Made by a program: the position numbers and the translations under genes
Shown: positions 28,378-60,296 of the stretch, one piece after another
Position numbering within the stretch: position 1 is the stretch's first letter
How the letters are laid out: every line of letters starts with the position of its first letter
The notes under the pieces: generated by a model
Told to the model about the DNA's origin: nothing
Databases searched by the model: none
Seen by the model: only the letters and a program-made list of their open reading frames with translations
NCBI GenBank assembly: GCA_964615565.1
Contig: CAZTPC010000001.1
Coordinates: 7,353-71,352, forward strand
Length of the DNA stretch: 64,000 bases
Source of the DNA: an uncultured Candidatus Saccharibacteria bacterium
GTDB taxonomy: Bacteria > Patescibacteriota > Saccharimonadia > Saccharimonadales > AWTP1-31
Direction: 5' to 3'

Positions 28378-30183
28378 ATGCCAAATGAAGATTCATCAAG
28401 TGAAATCTCGCCAGACGAAGATCGGCCTAAGGATGGTCTACTAGATGCAGCCGAACATGATAATCCAGTAGAACATCCAACTAAAGAATCAGACGATGTA
28501 GACGAGATTAATACCGACCATGCCGTAGACGATATTGTCGAGAAAGAAGGCGATGAAGTTCTGGCGGCCGAAGATGCAGAAGTTGCGAAGGCCTTTAGTG
28601 ATAAGTCGGAATCGCTTAAAGAAAAAATACAGCGACTCTATCAGCAGTGGTGGGACAACAAAAGATTACGGTATGGTACTTTTGCAGGTCTTGGTGTTTT
28701 TGTGTTGCTCACAGGTCTAGTGCCGCCAAGCCGTTACTTTGTGCTTAATACTGTAGGTGTACGATCAAGAGCTTCGATTGTTGTCATGGATGATTCTACT
28801 GATCGTCCGCTCAAGAACGTAGAGGTTACCCTGGGCAAGCAGCAAGTAAAGACTGACTCTAAAGGTAAGGCAACTTTCTCTAAGGTGCGATTGGGCAGGC
28901 AACCGCTAAAGATAGAGAAGCGAGCTTTCGCTGCCACTACCAAATCGGTAACAATAGGATGGGGAAGTAACCCGCTCGGCAACTCCGAGATTAAGCCTGT
29001 TGGCGCGCAGTATACCTTTTACGCGACTGATTGGTTGAGCGGCAAGGCGGTCACGAGTGCCGAAGCCAGTAGCGGGGAGTTTGATGCCGTGTCCGACAAG
29101 GAGGGAAAGATTGTTCTGACAATCGATGCAAGTGACAATGAAGACCTAGACGTGACATTTCGCTCTAAGGATTACCGAGACGAAGTAGTTAAGCTCGACC
29201 TAAGTAATAAAGCGCAGCTAGACGTAAAGCTGGTTGCTAGGCGCAAAGAAGTATTTATTAGTAAGCGCTCAGGTAAATATGACCTATACAAAATTGATAT
29301 AGATGGCAAAAACGAGCAGCAAGTGCTCGCCGGTACCGGAAATGAAAACGAGAATATCACGCTGGTTTCTCACCCAACAGATGAAGAAGTGGCATTGATT
29401 TCCACAAGAGACAATGTTCGAAATAAAGACGGCTACCTACTAAGTACCCTAACGGTCATCGATCTTGATGACAATAGCACTGAAAGTGTTGTGCAGTCAG
29501 AGGAGATACGAATGCTTGGCTGGAGTGGTGATCGATTAGTGTTTGTACAGGTTGCGGCCGGAGCGAGTGCTGGTAATCCAAAGCGGCAACGTCTAGTAAG
29601 CTACGATTACAAGTCAAACGAAAAACTTGAGCTAGCCAGTAGTAATAACTTCAATGACACAACATTAATTGGTAATACTGTTTACTACGCACCAGGCAAC
29701 CTCTATAACACTACAGTGGCAAACCATTTTTACTCACAACGGGTAGACGGTGCGAATAAAACCCCACTATTGGATGGTGAGATCTGGAATATATTTAGAA
29801 CTTCATATGGTGAGTTGGTGCTATCAGGTAACGATGCTTGGTACAACTACACTGTTGGCGAATCAAAAGCTACTCGTCGATCTGGCGCGCCTAATAATCT
29901 ACAAGATCTTGCATTTATCAATAGCCCGGATAGCAAGAGCAGCATTTGGGTAGACGAGCGCGATGGCAAGAATACGCTGCTCTTACATAACGTCGAGGAT
30001 GACCAAGATAAAACTTTGAAGGCCCAGGCTGGATTAGTTAGTCCGATTAGGTGGCTTAATGGTAGTACATTGATTTATCGTATTCAGGCACCCAATGAAT
30101 CAGCTGATTACGCCATAAGCACTAATGGGGGAGATGCAAAGAAGATTAGAGATGTCACCCGTACCCAAGACATCTGGCGCTAA
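28378..30183 (+). CDS. membrane-anchored extracytosolic protein with carboxypeptidase-regulatory-like domains and TolB/PD40-like beta-propeller repeats
   Basis: Acidic N-terminus and one TM helix (YGTFAGLGVFVLLTGLV). CarboxypepD_reg-like segments (VVMDDSTDRPLKNVEVTLGKQQVKTDSKGKATF) and PD40-like repeats (SGKYDLYKIDIDGKNEQQVLAG) follow. Confidence 0.6.
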   Translation: MPNEDSSSEISPDEDRPKDGLLDAAEHDNPVEHPTKESDDVDEINTDHAVDDIVEKEGDEVLAAEDAEVAKAFSDKSESLKEKIQRLYQQWWDNKRLRYGTFAGLGVFVLLTGLVPPSRYFVLNTVGVRSRASIVVMDDSTDRPLKNVEVTLGKQQVKTDSKGKATFSKVRLGRQPLKIEKRAFAATTKSVTIGWGSNPLGNSEIKPVGAQYTFYATDWLSGKAVTSAEASSGEFDAVSDKEGKIVLTIDASDNEDLDVTFRSKDYRDEVVKLDLSNKAQLDVKLVARRKEVFISKRSGKYDLYKIDIDGKNEQQVLAGTGNENENITLVSHPTDEEVALISTRDNVRNKDGYLLSTLTVIDLDDNSTESVVQSEEIRMLGWSGDRLVFVQVAAGASAGNPKRQRLVSYDYKSNEKLELASSNNFNDTTLIGNTVYYAPGNLYNTTVANHFYSQRVDGANKTPLLDGEIWNIFRTSYGELVLSGNDAWYNYTVGESKATRRSGAPNNLQDLAFINSPDSKSSIWVDERDGKNTLLLHNVEDDQDKTLKAQAGLVSPIRWLNGSTLIYRIQAPNESADYAISTNGGDAKKIRDVTRTQDIWR

Positions 30184-49258: not shown

Positions 49259-50242
49259 ATGGCCAGAACAGATCTAACAGATATAGCTCAAGACCTATCG
49301 AGCAATCAGAAAGGTCCTTTTTTTATTTTGGCGCCCATGGACGATGTGACTGACACGGTATTTCGTCAGATCATTGCCGGTACAGCTGCGCCCGATCTGT
49401 TCTTTACCGAATTCGTGAATGTCGACGGGTTACAAAGTCCTGGTCGCGAGAAGATTATTCATAAACTGCAGTTCACCGATAAAGAACGGCCGCTCATCGC
49501 CCAGGTGTGGGGCAAAAATCCCGATAACTACCGAGAAGTTGCCAAGCAGATTAAAGAGATGGGCTTTGTTGGGATCGATATCAATATGGGGTGTCCCGCT
49601 AAACCTGTTGTCCAGAATGGCTGCTGCAGCGCACTTATCAATAACCGTGAACTAGCTGGAGACATCATCAAAGCTGTCCGTGAAGGTGCGGGCCCAGACT
49701 TCCCAATTAGCGTAAAAACTCGTATCGGTTTTGGGCAAGTAGATCTAACCTGGATCGAGTTCCTGCTTAGCCACGATATCGACATGCTGACCGTTCATGG
49801 TCGTACCGTACGGGAAATGTCCAAAGTACCAGCACACTGGGATATCATTGGCGAGGTAGTGAAACTCCGCGACAAGATAGCACCAAAGGTGTTAATCGTC
49901 GGAAACGGCGACGTCGAAAGTCGGGCCCAAGGCGAACGGCTTGCCAAACAGTACGGGATAGACGGCATTATGATTGGGCGGGGAGTATTCCACGACCCTT
50001 ATGTTTTTGCTCAGCAAACTCCGTGGGCAGACATGACTAAAGAGCAAAAGATCGACCTATTTATCAAGCATGTAGAATTGTTTGCCAAAACTTGGGAAAA
50101 CGCTCAACGCCGGATGGTTACACTCAACAAGTTCTGCAAAATCTATGTCGAAGGGTTCTCTGGCGCAAAAGAATTGCGTGAGCAGCTAATGACCACCGAG
50201 AGTATCGACCAGCTATTACACATACTTGCCGAGAACAGATAA
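49259..50242 (+). CDS. dus: tRNA-dihydrouridine synthase
   Basis: Dus TIM-barrel motifs (ILAPMDDVTDTVFR, GIDINMGCPAKPV with the catalytic Cys). Confidence 0.85.
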   Translation: MARTDLTDIAQDLSSNQKGPFFILAPMDDVTDTVFRQIIAGTAAPDLFFTEFVNVDGLQSPGREKIIHKLQFTDKERPLIAQVWGKNPDNYREVAKQIKEMGFVGIDINMGCPAKPVVQNGCCSALINNRELAGDIIKAVREGAGPDFPISVKTRIGFGQVDLTWIEFLLSHDIDMLTVHGRTVREMSKVPAHWDIIGEVVKLRDKIAPKVLIVGNGDVESRAQGERLAKQYGIDGIMIGRGVFHDPYVFAQQTPWADMTKEQKIDLFIKHVELFAKTWENAQRRMVTLNKFCKIYVEGFSGAKELREQLMTTESIDQLLHILAENR

Positions 50243-50250
50243 AGCCGAAG

Positions 50251-50883
50251 CTACCGCCTAGTCAGTTGCTGTCTCAGAGTAGATGGTGAGAGTATACGTA
50301 TAGTTCGACTCTTCATGCTGACAACTCCTTGGCTACTCAGGTGACGGATAAGTTTATTCACCGTCTCCCTAGTGCTACTGACTGATTGCGCTAACTGTCT
50401 ATGGGTAATCGGTAGGCTAATAACTGTTTGATCATCGTTAGTCCGTCCGTATTGATTTGCCAGGTACAGTAGGCGAGCAACCAGACGTCGGTGGACATCT
50501 TTATAGCTCATGCCAGCCAAACGTACTGCCAGCAGTCTATTCTGGGCCTGCAATTGCTCGACATAGTCCATGTGGGTCATATCAAACGACTCAATAGGCA
50601 GCCGCAGTAAAGAGACATTACCTACACATCGGAACTGAAATGTTAAACCTGGTAATAGGTTTTTGTCGTGCTTAAGAACATGGCTATCAATAATATCTCC
50701 ACGTTTATAGAACTGAATATTCGTCTCCTGTCCGTCTACTATAGCTTCAAGGGCAACTGTACCGCTCCCAATCATATACACCTCTCGGTTAGGTGCTAGT
50801 ACTGCGTTATTCCTGAATTGTAGTTTGTCGGCTGACTTGAATAGTGTTTTCACTGTAGACCTCCTTGCCGTAGGTACTATCAA
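50251..50883 (-). CDS. Crp/Fnr family transcriptional regulator
   Basis: N-terminal cNMP-binding beta-roll and C-terminal HTH (RETVNKLIRHLSSQGVV). Confidence 0.8.
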   Translation of the reverse strand: MIVPTARRSTVKTLFKSADKLQFRNNAVLAPNREVYMIGSGTVALEAIVDGQETNIQFYKRGDIIDSHVLKHDKNLLPGLTFQFRCVGNVSLLRLPIESFDMTHMDYVEQLQAQNRLLAVRLAGMSYKDVHRRLVARLLYLANQYGRTNDDQTVISLPITHRQLAQSVSSTRETVNKLIRHLSSQGVVSMKSRTIRILSPSTLRQQLTRR

Positions 50884-53028: not shown

Positions 53029-54471
53029 ATGCCTGTCGGTGAAGTAAGATCAACTCCTAGCCCGTACGAAGCCAAGCTGCCGCATGGTGAAAACTTGTTT
53101 CATGTCTATGCTGGAGTTGGTGCCGCAGCCTTTCGACTTGCGGAGACAAACGACATTGCGCAGAAGGCGCTAGGCGAGAGTCTGCTTGCAGATACTCGTG
53201 TAATGATGCCTGGTTCCAGAGTGTATCGAGCGGTAGAGGCTGCTTTTTCTATGCCCCATTCTCACGAGTCATACAGTGCTCAGTTTGATGCCGGAGTTGA
53301 ACTCGGCGAAGCTATTGTCGCATCGACAGACGATCCTCGTCAGCGTGTTGTGACCTTTTTGAACGCCTATTTCCAAGTAATAAAAGCTAGAATCGGAACG
53401 CAGGGCACGGCCAATCTTGATAGTTATATAAACAGTATTAGCGATTTCTCGCGGGCTGTGGTGGTTACTTCGCTTCCGACTGATGAAGACTCGCTTGAGA
53501 TGCTGGTAGGGCTCGAACAAGAGGTGAAAGAGCTTGCCGACAGAGACGACATGTTTGGCTTCTTCACCCTGCCAATGCTAGCAATTTGCCAGGAGACTCT
53601 GTACCGATCAGTAGCTAGTCATGTATTCAAAAGCGAAGTCGATCCAAATGCACCTCAACCCAGTGCTGAGGAAGTGGCCAGTACAATTGATATGGCACAG
53701 GAGATCATAGCTTCTAAGAGATACGAAGTAAAACCAGCTTATACCGAAGCCTCGACTGGTGGTTCATGGTTGTATTACGATGGGCCTTCTTTCTTTATCC
53801 CACGGCAAGATAAGACATTCAAGATCGATGTTCCCGCAGCTTTCATTTTGCACTCAGATAAGACTTCGTTCCAGACAACTAAGCTCCGTTTGTTGAATAC
53901 AACACAGGGCAAACAGTCTGGTCTAATTACCAAGGAGACTGCTGCTGAGATAGTCCCTAACTTTATGCTGTACTTACAGCCCAATGGATCACTCACTTTA
54001 GACGACCTAGGCCTAAGGGAACTACGCGCCGAGCTTAAAGATGACCGTGCCTACCTCCGCGCACTTGCGGAGATTACTGCTGGGTACTTCGACCTGACAC
54101 GCTCAGCCAGCCAGGTTAGGGCTAGCGGTGTCCGAAACTTCTCGCAACTTACAAGTGATGAACGTGCAGACTACGACCCTGTGGTTGACTTGCTGTTACC
54201 TCGCAGCCGAGCACTCCGTAACTCCGCAGGTGCTACCAAGGCCGAACAGCAAGAAGACGATAAGGAAGAGGCGGAGGCCAACCGGCGAACTATCCGAAAA
54301 CACGAAGTTATAGCTCATCCTCGCATGCTACCTCCAGGCTATACGCCAAACCCAGAAGCACTTGCCCTTGCAGAAACATTAGGGATTAAGCTTGAGCCGG
54401 GCGAGACGCTGGTTAAGAAGCACAATCGCGGTAGTGGCAACGAAGTAGAAGGCCATAAAGTAGTCAGCTAG
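53029..54471 (+). CDS. hypothetical protein (480 aa)
   Basis: Long ORF with no recognised motif, immediately upstream of an ABC exporter. Confidence 0.55.
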   Translation: MPVGEVRSTPSPYEAKLPHGENLFHVYAGVGAAAFRLAETNDIAQKALGESLLADTRVMMPGSRVYRAVEAAFSMPHSHESYSAQFDAGVELGEAIVASTDDPRQRVVTFLNAYFQVIKARIGTQGTANLDSYINSISDFSRAVVVTSLPTDEDSLEMLVGLEQEVKELADRDDMFGFFTLPMLAICQETLYRSVASHVFKSEVDPNAPQPSAEEVASTIDMAQEIIASKRYEVKPAYTEASTGGSWLYYDGPSFFIPRQDKTFKIDVPAAFILHSDKTSFQTTKLRLLNTTQGKQSGLITKETAAEIVPNFMLYLQPNGSLTLDDLGLRELRAELKDDRAYLRALAEITAGYFDLTRSASQVRASGVRNFSQLTSDERADYDPVVDLLLPRSRALRNSAGATKAEQQEDDKEEAEANRRTIRKHEVIAHPRMLPPGYTPNPEALALAETLGIKLEPGETLVKKHNRGSGNEVEGHKVVS

Positions 54472-56736: not shown

Positions 56737-58269
56737 TTAGTATCCAGAGAAATAATCCGTACGAATATGATCACGTGGGATACCCATGGAGCGCAGGGTT
56801 CGCTTGTTAGCAATCACCATTCCATTTGGCCCAGATATATAATACTGACGTTTGTCATAATCAAGTACGTGCTGTTTAATCATGTCCGCAGTAATAAACC
56901 CAACTTCGCCGCTCCAGCTCTTTGGAACTTCTTCGCCAGGAGTAGGGCTTAGTACATACACAACTTTCAGCCCGTATTCTTTAGCATCATTCAATACGTT
57001 TTTGTAGACAATTTGCTTGGGGTCGCTCACCGCGTAGAATAGCACTATGTTGCGAGACTGACGGTTGTCTATTAGGTACTTCAACATACTGCGGTAAGGC
57101 GTAATGCCAATGCCGCCGGCAATAAATACCATGCGAACTTTTTCATCGATTGGCAGAAGAAAATCGCCAGCCAGATTATTGGCAGTCACGATGGTACCCT
57201 TGGGCAAGACAGCCAGGGTACTTTTGAATGCACTACCTTTCTGGGCATGCTTAACACCAAATAAAACTGTGTCCTCAGTTGGTGATGATGCGATAGTGAA
57301 TGTTCGCCGATTACCAAGTGAGTCGGACTTTTTAAGAGGGAGGGTCAGTTCTAGATATTGTCCAGGCTTATAGTCTAGTGGAGATTCAGGCTTGAACGAA
57401 TATTCGTACACTGTCCGACCGATCTCCTCGCGCGAGACAAGTTTGAGTGGTTGTCGTCCGCGGGGTGCCGCAAGTAGCAAAAATAGGTTACCAAGTATTA
57501 GACTGAGCTCTGGTGTCATAGACAGGCTGCCGATATGCAACCCGGATCCAAATAATGCACCCACAATAGCGCCATGGGCAATCTGCTGATATCGTCGGGG
57601 CGGAGTGGTAACTGGCTCGGTTAGCATAAAACCGCCAAAGAACAGGATAGGGAACGACAATAAGCTTAATCGTATAGCTTCAACAATGCCATTGTCTGAC
57701 CTTAGAACTATAAGTAGCATAGCCATGCCAGCAAAACTGAGGAACATTGGGAATCGGTGAATTTTACGCAGTTCAAGAACTGCCAGTATGGCAACAAATA
57801 TAAACATACTGCTGCTGCCAATCCACCAACGAGTGTGGAGTAGTCCAGTTAGTCCAATAACCAGGGCGCCAAAGGCAGCCGGGTTGAAGAGGTGCCGTTG
57901 TCGTTTCGTAATTAAATATTTTGAAGCTATCGCAATAAGACCCGCAAGACCAAGTGCTATACCTTCGCGAATGTTACGCGGTGGTTGGAATATAAAGTAC
58001 AACAGCAGCGCGGTAATGTTGCTTGATTCGTTATTGCTGACTGCACCATATAGTTTTGCCAAGATGTAGTTTGAGCCAATGCATACACCAATTAGGATAG
58101 AGATGCTTACAAGTGGACGAACGGGGCCATACGGCAGTACACCGGTAATACTGAATAGTAATGAGATTGCAAAGAGTGCACGAAGCCCCCATAGCAAGAG
58201 GCGGTACATGGTGACTTTATTAACAAAGTCGTCTATAGCATTTTGAATGGTGTGTAACACTTGTTTCAT
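56737..58269 (-). CDS. membrane-bound FAD/NAD(P)-binding oxidoreductase (polytopic N-terminal domain + ferredoxin-reductase-type FAD and NAD domains)
   Basis: About 230 aa of TM helices containing several His. Then the FAD-binding R-x-[FY]-[ST] motif (RRTFTIASSP) and the NAD-binding GGxGxxP (GGIGITPYRSM). Confidence 0.8.
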   Translation of the reverse strand: MKQVLHTIQNAIDDFVNKVTMYRLLLWGLRALFAISLLFSITGVLPYGPVRPLVSISILIGVCIGSNYILAKLYGAVSNNESSNITALLLYFIFQPPRNIREGIALGLAGLIAIASKYLITKRQRHLFNPAAFGALVIGLTGLLHTRWWIGSSSMFIFVAILAVLELRKIHRFPMFLSFAGMAMLLIVLRSDNGIVEAIRLSLLSFPILFFGGFMLTEPVTTPPRRYQQIAHGAIVGALFGSGLHIGSLSMTPELSLILGNLFLLLAAPRGRQPLKLVSREEIGRTVYEYSFKPESPLDYKPGQYLELTLPLKKSDSLGNRRTFTIASSPTEDTVLFGVKHAQKGSAFKSTLAVLPKGTIVTANNLAGDFLLPIDEKVRMVFIAGGIGITPYRSMLKYLIDNRQSRNIVLFYAVSDPKQIVYKNVLNDAKEYGLKVVYVLSPTPGEEVPKSWSGEVGFITADMIKQHVLDYDKRQYYISGPNGMVIANKRTLRSMGIPRDHIRTDYFSGY

Positions 58270-59168
58270 GATGCTAACATTCGGCCAGGAAAATTGTCCG
58301 AAGTCCTTATGCTATTATCCGACATTTGCATAACATACTCAAATTCGAATTCTTTTTGTAGACGTGAGGGCGGTGTAAAAAATAATGCAGTAGATAGTCC
58401 ATCGGCTAGCATGGTTGTTTTTGCGACTACACAGGTTGCTGTAACAGTTTCGGTAGAGCGAAGGGTAGACGGGTTAATAATGTGGTGAAATTCGCCCCAC
58501 TTACGACGGCTCCCTGCTGAAGCGCATAGACTTTGATTTGATAGTTCGGCAATCCCAATGGCAGTGCCGAGCTGTTCTGGGTCTTCTAGCCCAACAGGGG
58601 TGGAACTTCTTAGAGTAGGGGAGGCAACACGAATATCTCCCCCGGCATCGATTAGATATGTGGTAATCCCCTGATCTTGGATGAGTTCTGCAATTTGATC
58701 AACCAAATATCCTTTGCCAATAGCCCCAAAGTCTAACAAGCATTCATACTTAACATGTAAAGTATTGTCTGTAAGTTCGACTGTCTCTGGTAATTCTGGT
58801 ATCGGTCGCAACTTTGTTGGTTTCAGGCTGTACATAGAATCGTACCCTGCTCTTTCCATTGCATCGCCAATTAATGGCGTTACTAATCCGTTAGTTATTT
58901 TGTATAGCTGCTCATACATATCTAGCATTGGTGCGAGATCGGCTGGTGCTGTATAGTCGCCAGGTTTGCGCACGCTCCAGACCCACGAATCGGCGCGGAA
59001 GCGGGAATAGGTACGGTCGAATTCACTAATGTGAACGGCGATAAGCTCTGCGATCATTGGAGCTAATTCTTGGTGGGCTTCGAATTCGATATTCCAGATC
59101 GTACCAATAGCCTCAAAGTCGAGACGGATAGGCGACGTTTTAGCTTTGAGCTTGGTTTCGGATGGCAT
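58266..59168 (-). CDS. apbE: FAD:protein FMN transferase (ApbE family)
   Basis: ApbE motifs (FEAIGTIWNIE, LDFGAIGKGYLVDQ, IDAGGD). No N-terminal signal peptide is visible. Confidence 0.8.
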   Translation of the reverse strand: MPSETKLKAKTSPIRLDFEAIGTIWNIEFEAHQELAPMIAELIAVHISEFDRTYSRFRADSWVWSVRKPGDYTAPADLAPMLDMYEQLYKITNGLVTPLIGDAMERAGYDSMYSLKPTKLRPIPELPETVELTDNTLHVKYECLLDFGAIGKGYLVDQIAELIQDQGITTYLIDAGGDIRVASPTLRSSTPVGLEDPEQLGTAIGIAELSNQSLCASAGSRRKWGEFHHIINPSTLRSTETVTATCVVAKTTMLADGLSTALFFTPPSRLQKEFEFEYVMQMSDNSIRTSDNFPGRMLAS

Positions 59169-59652
59169 CGAGTGCGTTGTTAAAGCCTCTAGTGGTCAGT
59201 GATGCACCGGCGATTCGCGAAAGTCGAAGCGTTGCTACTGACTTGCCCGAAACTGATTCTTCATACTGATCTTTAAAGTCTTGCAGGTATTCTTTAGATT
59301 CACGAGATGTTACATCGCCAGTTACAGAACTGCTAGAGATTGCACCATTGCTAATGGTTATTGTTACCGTGATCTCTTCGTTTCCACCAGGAGTACTAAA
59401 GTCGCCCTTGGCTGTATAGGTTCCGTCTTTGTATGTGCCACTCGATGAGCTGCCAGTAGACGACGTGTCGGCAGTGCTGTTGTTCGAAGTATCCGAAGTC
59501 GATGAAGACGAAGAATCTGCTGTAGAGCTTGAACCCATAGAATCCGTGGTAGAGTCCTTGGGTTTTAGAAATATTGTACCGGCGATAATCATGCCGATAA
59601 TCACGACGGCTACGATTCCGACTACAGCGTTATTTTTTGATCCTTGCTTCAT
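59140..59652 (-). CDS. FMN-binding domain protein (predicted ApbE flavinylation substrate), membrane-anchored
   Basis: N-terminal TM anchor and a Ser/Thr/Asp-rich linker. FMN_bind domain (YKDGTYTAKGDFSTPGGNEEITVTITISNGAI ... LSRIAGASLTTRGF) aligns with the D-x-x-SGAT-x-TS flavinylation motif. Confidence 0.75.
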   Translation of the reverse strand: MKQGSKNNAVVGIVAVVIIGMIIAGTIFLKPKDSTTDSMGSSSTADSSSSSTSDTSNNSTADTSSTGSSSSGTYKDGTYTAKGDFSTPGGNEEITVTITISNGAISSSSVTGDVTSRESKEYLQDFKDQYEESVSGKSVATLRLSRIAGASLTTRGFNNALDAIRNQAQS

Positions 59653-59705: not shown

Positions 59706-60296
59706 CTACGGTTTGGGGTCGTAGAACGTAATCCAGATAATCCAAATTTGTATTAGCATTCCGAGAAGAATCTGCATGACAACCCATGTGATGCTTCGTG
59801 GCAGAACACTCATGGCTGCTGCCAGTATTGCACCAAGCGCGACGAGCATTATTGAGTTTTTGCGCAGTATTTTGTCTTTGTTACGTTTAGCTAGCCCATA
59901 AATGCCGAACAGAAAACCAAGCGTCATAAGATACGCGATACTGATATGAAGAAGGTTGCTGACTTGGTTTTTGGGATGATACGGGATAAGCGCAATCCCT
60001 AGAAGTCCTAGCGCTGCAAAGCTGAAAAGACGAGTAGGGGTGGTGAGTTTGTTGCGTAAGTGCCCTACCACAAATATCCAAAAGCTTGCAGCCGCTAAGC
60101 CGAAACATAATGAGAAGACTAATCGTGTTTCTGGCAGTGTTGAGTAGTAGCTTATTGGCTGATTGCCTTTTAAACCCTCGTTGGTGCGTACATGAAAGAA
60201 CAATACGGCGAACCACTCTAAGATGATGGCAAGAATGCCGCCATACCTGGAGAACTCGACGAGGCGTTTGTTACGCGTGATATGCGCAATCTGCAT
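59706..60296 (-). CDS. hypothetical polytopic membrane protein (196 aa)
   Basis: Five or six hydrophobic helices. May be the first gene of the flavinylation operon. Confidence 0.5.
   Translation of the reverse strand: MQIAHITRNKRLVEFSRYGGILAIILEWFAVLFFHVRTNEGLKGNQPISYYSTLPETRLVFSLCFGLAAASFWIFVVGHLRNKLTTPTRLFSFAALGLLGIALIPYHPKNQVSNLLHISIAYLMTLGFLFGIYGLAKRNKDKILRKNSIMLVALGAILAAAMSVLPRSITWVVMQILLGMLIQIWIIWITFYDPKP

Follow-up and report, generated by a model that had tools for sequence, protein, structure and literature searches.

How could a bacterium of reduced genome carry electrons out across its membrane with as few as three genes? The question is raised by positions 56737-59652 of a 64-kb stretch of DNA (64,000 nucleotides of contig CAZTPC010000001.1, from an uncultured Candidatus Saccharibacteria bacterium; hereafter, the window). 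Three minus-strand genes overlap one another translationally there, and they code for a flavin mononucleotide (FMN)-binding protein (FMN_bind protein), an ApbE enzyme (flavin adenine dinucleotide (FAD):protein FMN transferase) and a membrane protein fused to an oxidoreductase domain of the ferredoxin reductase type (FNR-type). This trio is an ordinary member of the published "NQR/RNF-like" system, and it probably functions as a minimal, unidirectional transmembrane electron-transfer device of that type. A previous examination of the letters alone (the sequence-only reading) had noted a resemblance to ApbE-dependent, NQR/RNF-like extracytosolic electron transfer, and this resemblance agrees with the class described in the literature (PMC8238504, PMC10979944).

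The list of open reading frames (ORFs) and their translations were checked, and the four minus-strand ORFs and peptide strings quoted in the sequence-only reading all exist as given there. The FMN_bind-like ORF (59140-59652, 170 aa) holds LSRIAGASLTTRGF and lies directly upstream of the ApbE ORF (58266-59168, 300 aa), with which it shares, as had been reported, 29 nt (59140-59168). The ATG of the fusion ORF (56737-58269, 510 aa, holding RRTFTIASSP and GGIGITPYRSM) shares 4 nt with the stop of ApbE (ATGA). The fourth ORF (59706-60296, 196 aa), which is polytopic, is located upstream of the trio. The module is made up of the following features:

59140..59652, minus strand: gene of the FMN_bind protein, 170 aa, membrane-anchored, predicted ApbE substrate and predicted extracytoplasmic electron-output subunit (PF04205 in its C-terminal domain, profile match to 8p2a, synteny in 52/61 loci).
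59569..59625, minus strand: N-terminal signal-anchor helix of the FMN_bind protein, about residues 10-28 (best 19-residue hydropathy 2.86, at residue 10).
59437..59556, minus strand: Ser/Thr/Asp-rich low-complexity linker of the FMN_bind protein, about residues 33-72 (read from the translation).
59143..59436, minus strand: FMN_bind domain, residues 73-170 (PF04205, homologue alignment, match to PDB 8p2a).
59200..59202, minus strand: codon of Ser151, the predicted FMN acceptor, in L-S-R-I-A-G-A-S151-L-T-T (homologue alignment; aligned with the Thr of VSGATYTS in 8p2a).
58266..59168, minus strand: gene of the leaderless ApbE, FAD:protein FMN transferase, 300 aa (PF02424, matches to 7esa and 6nxi, no signal peptide or transmembrane segment).
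57460..58269, minus strand: NqrB/RnfD-like membrane domain of the fusion, residues 1-270, with about 10 membrane segments, N-in and C-in (RnfD profile match, AlphaFold2 (AF2) model and Foldseek, Lys/Arg (K/R) counts of the loops).
56740..57459, minus strand: cytoplasmic FNR-type FAD/NAD(P)H-binding domain of the fusion, residues 271-510, with the RRTFTIASSP and GGIGITP motifs (PF00175, profile and Foldseek matches).

The grouping of these three genes is not a peculiarity of the window. A scan of one genome per species gave 80 loci, whose six-frame ORFs were then compared with the window proteins by jackhmmer. A full-length fusion is present in 62 loci, 61 of which include upstream DNA and constitute the informative set. 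The order FMN_bind, ApbE, fusion, on one strand and with genes abutting or overlapping, is found in 52/61 loci, a count that includes seven syntenic loci missed by a stricter filter. This arrangement is far beyond chance, and the co-conservation on which the sequence-only reading had made its proposal depend is thus borne out. The remaining informative loci have FMN_bind only (2/61) or neither partner (7/61). The hosts belong to at least five phyla and comprise numerous lineages of Patescibacteria, Chloroflexota (Dictyobacter, Ktedonospora, Anaerolineae), Actinomycetota (Microbacterium, Arthrobacter and relatives), Alphaproteobacteria (Mesorhizobium, Phyllobacterium, Methylocapsa) and Treponemataceae. 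Relatives as close as 65-70 % identity keep the trio as well as the convergent DivIC gene that follows it, and a relative at 72 % identity carries an insertion between the module genes. When a profile of the membrane domain was searched, 618 clusters, each represented at 50 % identity, were recovered with E≤1e-30, and 1,490 with E≤1e-10; most of them are fusions of 480-515 aa. The family therefore extends far beyond the 127 clusters of the first report (PMC8238504).

Some members depart from the common plan. The full-length fusions without adjacent ApbE or FMN_bind genes are those of L002, L018, L019, L024, L039, L042 and L052, while L005 and L012 have FMN_bind but no adjacent ApbE, L012 with two FMN_bind genes in tandem. 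In these loci the missing partners may be encoded elsewhere, or the loci may be functional variants. Proteins of 250-350 aa with only the membrane domain also appear among the cluster representatives, and they could be fragments. In loci L066-L080 the match is confined to one half of the fusion, either FNR or NqrB-like (the ORFs matching the FNR half are of about 230-310 aa, several from Saccharibacteria), and these loci may be split versions or unrelated paralogues.

The FMN_bind protein is the proposed output subunit. At full length it gave no Pfam match passing threshold, presumably because of its Ser/Thr-rich low-complexity linker, since the C-terminal 98 residues pass PF04205 once the linker is removed (25.5 bits, the gathering score being 22, E=2e-5). 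The domain assignment made from the letters consequently fails for the whole protein and holds for the isolated domain, as it does for 23/24 of the homologous domains. Moreover, a profile of the homologues matches the solved covalently flavinylated domain 8p2a (E=5.6e-16), with the acceptor motif in register. Ser151, placed 19 residues from the C-terminus, is the predicted site of covalent FMN. The motif of the window reads A-G-A-S151 as compared with the canonical (S/T)GA(T/S), its first position being Ala in the subclass to which the window belongs. At the aligned position the 58 alignable homologues divide equally, 29 with Ser and 29 with Thr, so that a Ser/Thr acceptor, whose absence from homologues would have spoken against the proposal, is kept in 58/58. 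A second flavinylation target was sought in the fusion, in ApbE and in the other window genes, and none was found. The only other flavinylation-like string of the window, VQVAAGASAGN near 29548 (plus strand), belongs to a 601-aa ORF (28378-30183) with CarboxypepD_reg and DUF5050 matches and probably fits the loose pattern by chance.

On which side of the membrane does this domain lie? The protein has an N-terminal anchor, and the homologues that share it show a net charge of +1.7 before the helix and of -0.7 after it. In Actinomycetota (loci L026, L029, L038, L044, L046, L049-L053 and L055-L063), a lipoprotein signal peptide with the lipobox L-A-G-C stands in place of the anchor helix. Given these lipoprotein signals and the N-in/C-out charge bias of the family, the FMN_bind domain is predicted to be extracytoplasmic, which is the outcome of the topology check called for in the sequence-only reading. 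The reverse orientation (N-out/C-in) would give an all-cytoplasmic module, that is, a membrane-tethered NAD(P)H:flavin oxidoreductase whose acceptor would be in the membrane or in the cytoplasm. It would put ApbE, which is leaderless, on the side of its substrate, and the anchor charges of the window protein itself are ambiguous (K2 and K6 before the helix, K30 and K32 after it). However, we regard this orientation as highly improbable: the lipoprotein signal peptides of the Actinomycetota orthologues are unmistakable, 25 homologues have more K/R residues on the N side, against 10 with more on the C side, and the long Ser/Thr/Pro-rich linkers of this family (linker lengths range from 12 to 184 residues) are of the kind usual in tethers exposed at the surface. 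In addition, the published AlphaFold-multimer model has the FMN_bind subunit on the extracytosolic face (PMC10979944). A few Actinomycetota homologues have RR or RK before the hydrophobic core (SLRRTLF in L049, PLRKTLY in L046), hinting that Tat export of a pre-folded, pre-flavinylated FMN_bind protein might operate in some lineages.

The third gene product joins two domains. The C-terminal one matches PF00175 (E=8.2e-18, 65.5 bits against a gathering score of 22), together with a weak PF00970 match. Its profile matches are the flavin reductase 1qfj and NqrF FAD domains, and Foldseek on the full-length model retrieved NqrF, flavohemoglobin and cytochrome b5 reductase domains, SpNOX (8qt6) being among the matches. 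The sequence-only reading was thus right in seeing a polytopic membrane protein with a ferredoxin-reductase-type FAD/NAD module. Because matches to the FNR domain dominated this search, the membrane domain was modelled alone with AF2 (pLDDT 86.9, pTM 0.85). The top 15 Foldseek PDB matches of this model are all RnfD or NqrB (TM score 0.57-0.70), and after them come only distantly related urea/Amt/Rh channel folds. A profile built from 17 membrane-domain sequences matches RnfD of Azotobacter (8ahx_D, E=2.4e-5), with LTEPxTTPP aligned to ATDPVTSP, and many homologues of the fusion carry a precomputed PF03116 match.

The membrane domain is therefore NqrB/RnfD-like and not heme-binding. A search for heme-binding His pairs, suggested by the sequence-only reading, was negative: only His126 is invariant among 17 diverse homologues. 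A membrane domain of the heme-type ferric reductases was rejected for this lack of a conserved His pair, for its NqrB/RnfD fold and for the absence of any such Pfam match. The flavinylation motif [STA]G[AS][ST] was sought in the fusion and is absent. The profile alignment also shows that about 80 residues separating FNPA from ATDP in RnfD are missing from the fusion, presumably the stretch where RnfD bears its flavinylated loop.

According to loop K/R counts over 17 homologues, made with the helices of the AF2 model, the fusion has about 10 membrane segments and both ends inside. The loop counts place KHxFNPAA and LTEPxTTPPR on the cytoplasmic side and the invariant WW148-149 outside. The junction that leads into the FNR domain is strongly positive and K/R-rich, which assigns this domain to the cytoplasmic side. 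Residues 2-22 form a strongly conserved cytoplasmic amphipathic helix before the first membrane helix, in which D13, N17, T20, M21 and Y22 hardly vary or do not vary at all; the FNR domain or ApbE could dock on it. The LTEPxTTP region also gave non-significant matches to PDB 5egi and 5eik (C. elegans Y57A10A.10 and Y57A10A.28; E=0.027 and 0.19), which we take to be TRIC cation channels. They share a similar L-G-E-P-V-x-x-P motif, and the match is probably convergent or due to chance.

Two acidic residues of the membrane domain, E81 in NxES and E218 in LTEP, are invariant and membrane-embedded, E218 being aligned with the Asp of RnfD ATDP. The equivalent Asp346 of V. cholerae NqrB has been implicated in Na+ translocation. 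Together with the NqrB/RnfD fold, these residues would suit an energy-coupled complex in which the membrane domain translocates Na+ or H+, either as a minimal redox-driven ion pump or as a gradient-driven reverse reductase. Such coupling is improbable, since NqrD/E or RnfA/E are absent from the operon and from the window ORFs that were scanned, the authors of the system proposed simple unidirectional transfer (PMC8238504), and the conserved acidic residues could equally bind flavin.

The middle gene raises a different problem. ApbE matches PF02424 (E=7.5e-41), and in its alignment with the solved ApbE/FmnB chains 7esa and 6nxi the GAIGKG, DAGGDI, F-H-H-I-I-N-P (HHIxNP) and DGLSTA motifs are in place. 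The motifs for FAD, Mg and the catalytic His are thus intact, and the enzyme is predicted to be active. Neither a signal peptide nor a transmembrane segment was found in the window protein (maximum 19-residue hydropathy 1.29). An upstream extension or an alternative start supplying a leader is ruled out by an in-frame stop 9 codons upstream of the ATG. The absence of a recognisable signal peptide, remarked upon in the sequence-only reading, is not a local oddity and extends to the whole family. All 54 syntenic ApbE genes are leaderless, their ORFs beginning at the catalytic domain, in monoderm as well as diderm hosts, including the diderm Mesorhizobium and the Actinomycetota whose substrate is a lipoprotein. 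The published extracytosolic model does not explain a dedicated leaderless ApbE beside an exported substrate, and this pairing is not discussed in Méheust 2021 (PMC8238504) or Huang 2024 (PMC10979944).

It is possible, and we propose it tentatively, that flavinylation takes place in the cytoplasm. The leaderless ApbE would modify the C-terminal acceptor motif of the FMN_bind pre-protein before or during export, or would remain bound to the fusion on its cytoplasmic face and act as the subunit that loads flavin. This concerns the maturation step only, is compatible with the proposed electron path, and would not need an FAD exporter. It accords with the lack of a leader in all 54 loci carrying ApbE while their substrates are exported (by lipobox or signal-anchor), with the position of the acceptor so near the C-terminus, and with the two gene overlaps (29 nt and 4 nt), which suggest translational coupling. 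A review of ApbE describes most of these enzymes as secreted lipoproteins, cytoplasmic ones existing as well, and reports that ApbE accepts short peptide tags for flavinylation (PMC12052999), so that a folded domain is not required. On the other hand, a cytoplasmic ApbE of Klebsiella does not serve periplasmic targets, according to work cited in that review (PMC12052999), and Sec would have to export an FMN-bearing chain. Furthermore, Tat-like RR motifs occur in few homologues only, and a second, secreted ApbE may be encoded elsewhere in these genomes. Flavinylation before or during export could still be the simplest way of reconciling a leaderless ApbE with an exported substrate, an idea that we hold with less than even confidence.

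ApbE and its target also vary together. Among loci L001-L063 the module falls into two classes, in which the size and identity of ApbE co-vary with a Ser or Thr acceptor motif, leaderless enzymes being common to both. In class A, ApbE has about 290-300 aa, is 34-44 % identical to the window ApbE and is accompanied by a Ser acceptor in V/L-S/D-x-V-(A/S)-G-(S/A)-S-L-T; its hosts are Saccharibacteria (including that of the window), some other Patescibacteria and Actinomycetota. In class B, ApbE has about 240-255 aa, is 22-29 % identical to the window enzyme and is accompanied by the canonical VDxxSGATxTS with a Thr acceptor; its hosts are Chloroflexota, Alphaproteobacteria, Treponemataceae and other Patescibacteria. 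This covariation suggests enzyme-substrate co-evolution, and the two-class split is not described in Méheust 2021 (PMC8238504) or Huang 2024 (PMC10979944).

From these folds, motifs, topology bias and synteny a path can be proposed for the electrons, with its likely cofactors, covalent adduct, donor, direction and acceptor. The cytoplasmic FNR-type domain of the fusion would oxidise NAD(P)H, the substrate expected from its family, and reduce its own FAD. Electrons would then cross the membrane through the NqrB/RnfD-like domain, presumably by way of a non-covalently bound flavin, because both the flavinylated loop of NqrB/RnfD and His pairs as heme ligands are missing from this domain. On the outer face they would reach an FMN covalently bound to Ser151 of the FMN_bind protein, held there by its anchor and flexible linker, and ApbE, encoded by the overlapping middle gene, would have moved this FMN from FAD to Ser151. 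Finally, the reduced FMN would hand the electrons to an extracellular or cell-surface acceptor. In a fermentative Saccharibacterium of reduced genome the simplest role would be the disposal of reducing equivalents (regeneration of NAD(P)+), external reduction of, for instance, Fe(III), or both.

Several points weigh against this account. Neither the operon nor the genes around it hint at an electron acceptor. The window fusion itself scores 24.3 bits for PF03116 (NQR2_RnfD_RnfE), below the gathering threshold of 27.7. ApbE is leaderless in every lineage, yet its substrate is exported, whereas in Klebsiella the specificity of ApbE is reported to be controlled by localisation (Bertsova 2014, as summarised in PMC12052999). 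Lastly, no experimental study of this NQR/RNF-like system turned up in the literature searched. Even so, the transmembrane electron-transfer device is the reading that we consider likely.

If Fe(III) were the acceptor, the module could be a dedicated ferric-iron reductase for iron assimilation, its external FMN reducing Fe(III) chelates for uptake. An iron-assimilation role has been proposed for some members of the system, as the VIT1 ferrous-iron transporter is present in six of 127 NQR/RNF-like clusters (PMC8238504). Six in 127 is weak support, however, and no iron transporter or siderophore gene is found in or near the operon or in the close relatives, which makes this specialised role unlikely for the window.

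The neighbourhood was also inspected for further components. The module is flanked downstream by the convergent DivIC gene and, beyond the 196-aa ORF, by a DEAD-box helicase gene. That ORF, which lies on the same strand 53 nt upstream of the module, matches DUF998 (PF06197, 37 bits). It stands beside the module in 0/80 related loci of the jackhmmer sample and in none of three close relatives at 65-72 % identity, and it was rejected as a fourth subunit on these grounds. Since DUF998 is never beside the module in relatives, its adjacency is lineage-specific and it is a neighbour, not a component. The sequence-only reading was correct about the presence of a fourth polytopic membrane ORF, and the association with the module implied by its mention does not stand. 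The gap between the DUF998 gene and the module contains a weak sigma-70-like site (59682-59655), and a promoter scan gave nothing beyond shuffled expectation.

Most of the other window ORFs of at least 150 aa were scanned with Pfam. They turned out to be housekeeping and envelope genes, and none was recognised as a further Rnf/Nqr subunit, a cytochrome or a quinone enzyme. Within this scope the module is the only membrane redox complex found in the window. NqrA/D/E or RnfA/B/C/E were absent from the operon, its flanks and the scanned ORFs, as well as from the surroundings of the fusion in relatives.

A few kb from the module there are genes for an NADPH-dependent FMN reductase (PF03358, 52419-52949, plus strand), a Crp-family regulator (50251-50883, minus strand) and a dihydrouridine synthase (49259-50242, plus strand). 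In relatives L081 and L083, too, Crp and dihydrouridine synthase genes are found close to the module. Some FMN_red proteins have been reported as ApbE substrates (Huang 2024, PMC10979944); the FMN_red protein of the window has no flavinylation-like motif. A 480-aa ORF (53029-54471, plus strand) has no Pfam match. Proteins of 481, 499 and 527 aa, likewise without Pfam match, are located near the module in relatives, one of them between ApbE and the fusion. The 480-aa ORF, which is comparable to them in length, may be a conserved lineage-specific neighbour.

The class of the system was already published, and the window provides a further instance of it, which the named homologues would place in a Saccharimonadales genome. 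In Saccharibacteria, largely devoid of respiratory chains, a two-subunit conduit from NAD(P)H to the outside may be among the very few membrane redox devices, which is relevant to the redox balance or the host interaction of Saccharibacteria epibionts. Two observations go beyond Méheust 2021 and Huang 2024, namely the leaderless ApbE in every lineage with an exported substrate and the two ApbE classes covarying with the acceptor. The former, being family-wide, turns the place where covalent flavinylation occurs into a concrete, testable question. If it proved to be the cytoplasm, extracytosolic flavoproteins would have a way of maturing that dispenses with FAD export and would suit Patescibacteria of reduced genome. 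Similarly, the pairing of the ApbE classes with Ser or Thr motifs, if true, would reflect a specialised enzyme-substrate relationship.

Among known systems, Na+-NQR resembles the module in the NqrB fold (TM score about 0.6), in the NqrF-like FAD/NADH domain, in an FMN_bind protein of the Pfam family of NqrC and in ApbE as maturation enzyme. However, the window module has no NqrA, NqrD or NqrE, no NqrF 2Fe-2S domain and no covalent-FMN threonine in the NqrB-like domain. Its NqrF-like and NqrB-like parts are fused, its ApbE is leaderless, and there is no quinone site or sign of ion pumping. With respect to Rnf, RnfD is the best sequence match (8ahx_D) and structural match (9eri_D, 7zc6_D, 8rbq_D) of the membrane domain, and RnfG is an FMN_bind protein. 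The differences are the lack of RnfA/B/C/E, of the ferredoxin-side Fe-S subunits and of the RnfD flavinylated loop, and a donor module of the FNR type. The other core subunits that define Na+-NQR and Rnf proper are thus absent from the operon, the flanks, the scanned ORFs and the loci of relatives.

The FmnB/PplA/Ndh2/EetAB system of Listeria monocytogenes also sends NADH electrons to a surface-tethered FMN_bind lipoprotein flavinylated by FmnB, and among solved structures it is Listeria FmnB (7esa) that the window ApbE matches best. The membrane step there involves Ndh2, a dedicated quinone and EetA/B, whereas a single NqrB-like/FNR fusion occupies this place in the window. Likewise, FmnB is a secreted lipoprotein that obtains FAD via an energy-coupling factor (ECF) transporter (PMC9973259), whereas the window ApbE has no export signal; the N-terminal signal or lipoprotein signal of extracytosolic-type ApbEs is lacking. 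The NOX/FRE proteins, such as SpNOX (8qt6), share with the fusion a C-terminal FNR-type domain on a polytopic membrane domain and carry NAD(P)H electrons across the membrane. They do so through a six-helix domain with two conserved His pairs for two b-hemes, while the window domain has no conserved His pair and its fold matches NqrB/RnfD only.

The closest counterpart is the NQR/RNF-like system, an architecture defined, with a proposal of unidirectional electron transfer, in Méheust 2021 (eLife, PMC8238504) and described chiefly in Actinobacteria and in the candidate phyla radiation (Méheust 2021 PMC8238504; Huang 2024 PMC10979944). It likewise consists of an NqrB/RnfD-like domain fused to PF00175, beside FMN_bind and ApbE, and lacks the flavinylation site of the membrane domain. 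Measured against that definition, the NqrB/RnfD-like domain of the window is counted as present through the PF03116 matches of homologues, the RnfD profile match and the model fold, its own score being sub-threshold. The C-terminal cytosolic PF00175 domain lies in the same protein. The definition further asks for ApbE, FMN_bind or both within five genes and for a secretion signal on at least one product; in the window both genes lie directly upstream of the fusion, and the FMN_bind protein has a hydrophobic N-terminal anchor as judged by hydropathy (KD19 2.86). The flavinylated Thr of NqrB/RnfD, described as not conserved in the system (PMC10979944), is missing from the fusion as well. For the complex of Ktedonobacter racemifer, AlphaFold-multimer shows two subunits, with the FMN_bind flavinylation site near the flavin pocket of the NqrB-like subunit (PMC10979944). 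The Chloroflexota members (Dictyobacter L004, Ktedonospora L025) combine SGAT with an ApbE of about 245 aa, whereas the window combines the Ser of (A/S)G(S/A)S-L-T with an ApbE of about 300 aa; these Ktedonobacteria loci nevertheless belong to the same synteny set as the window.

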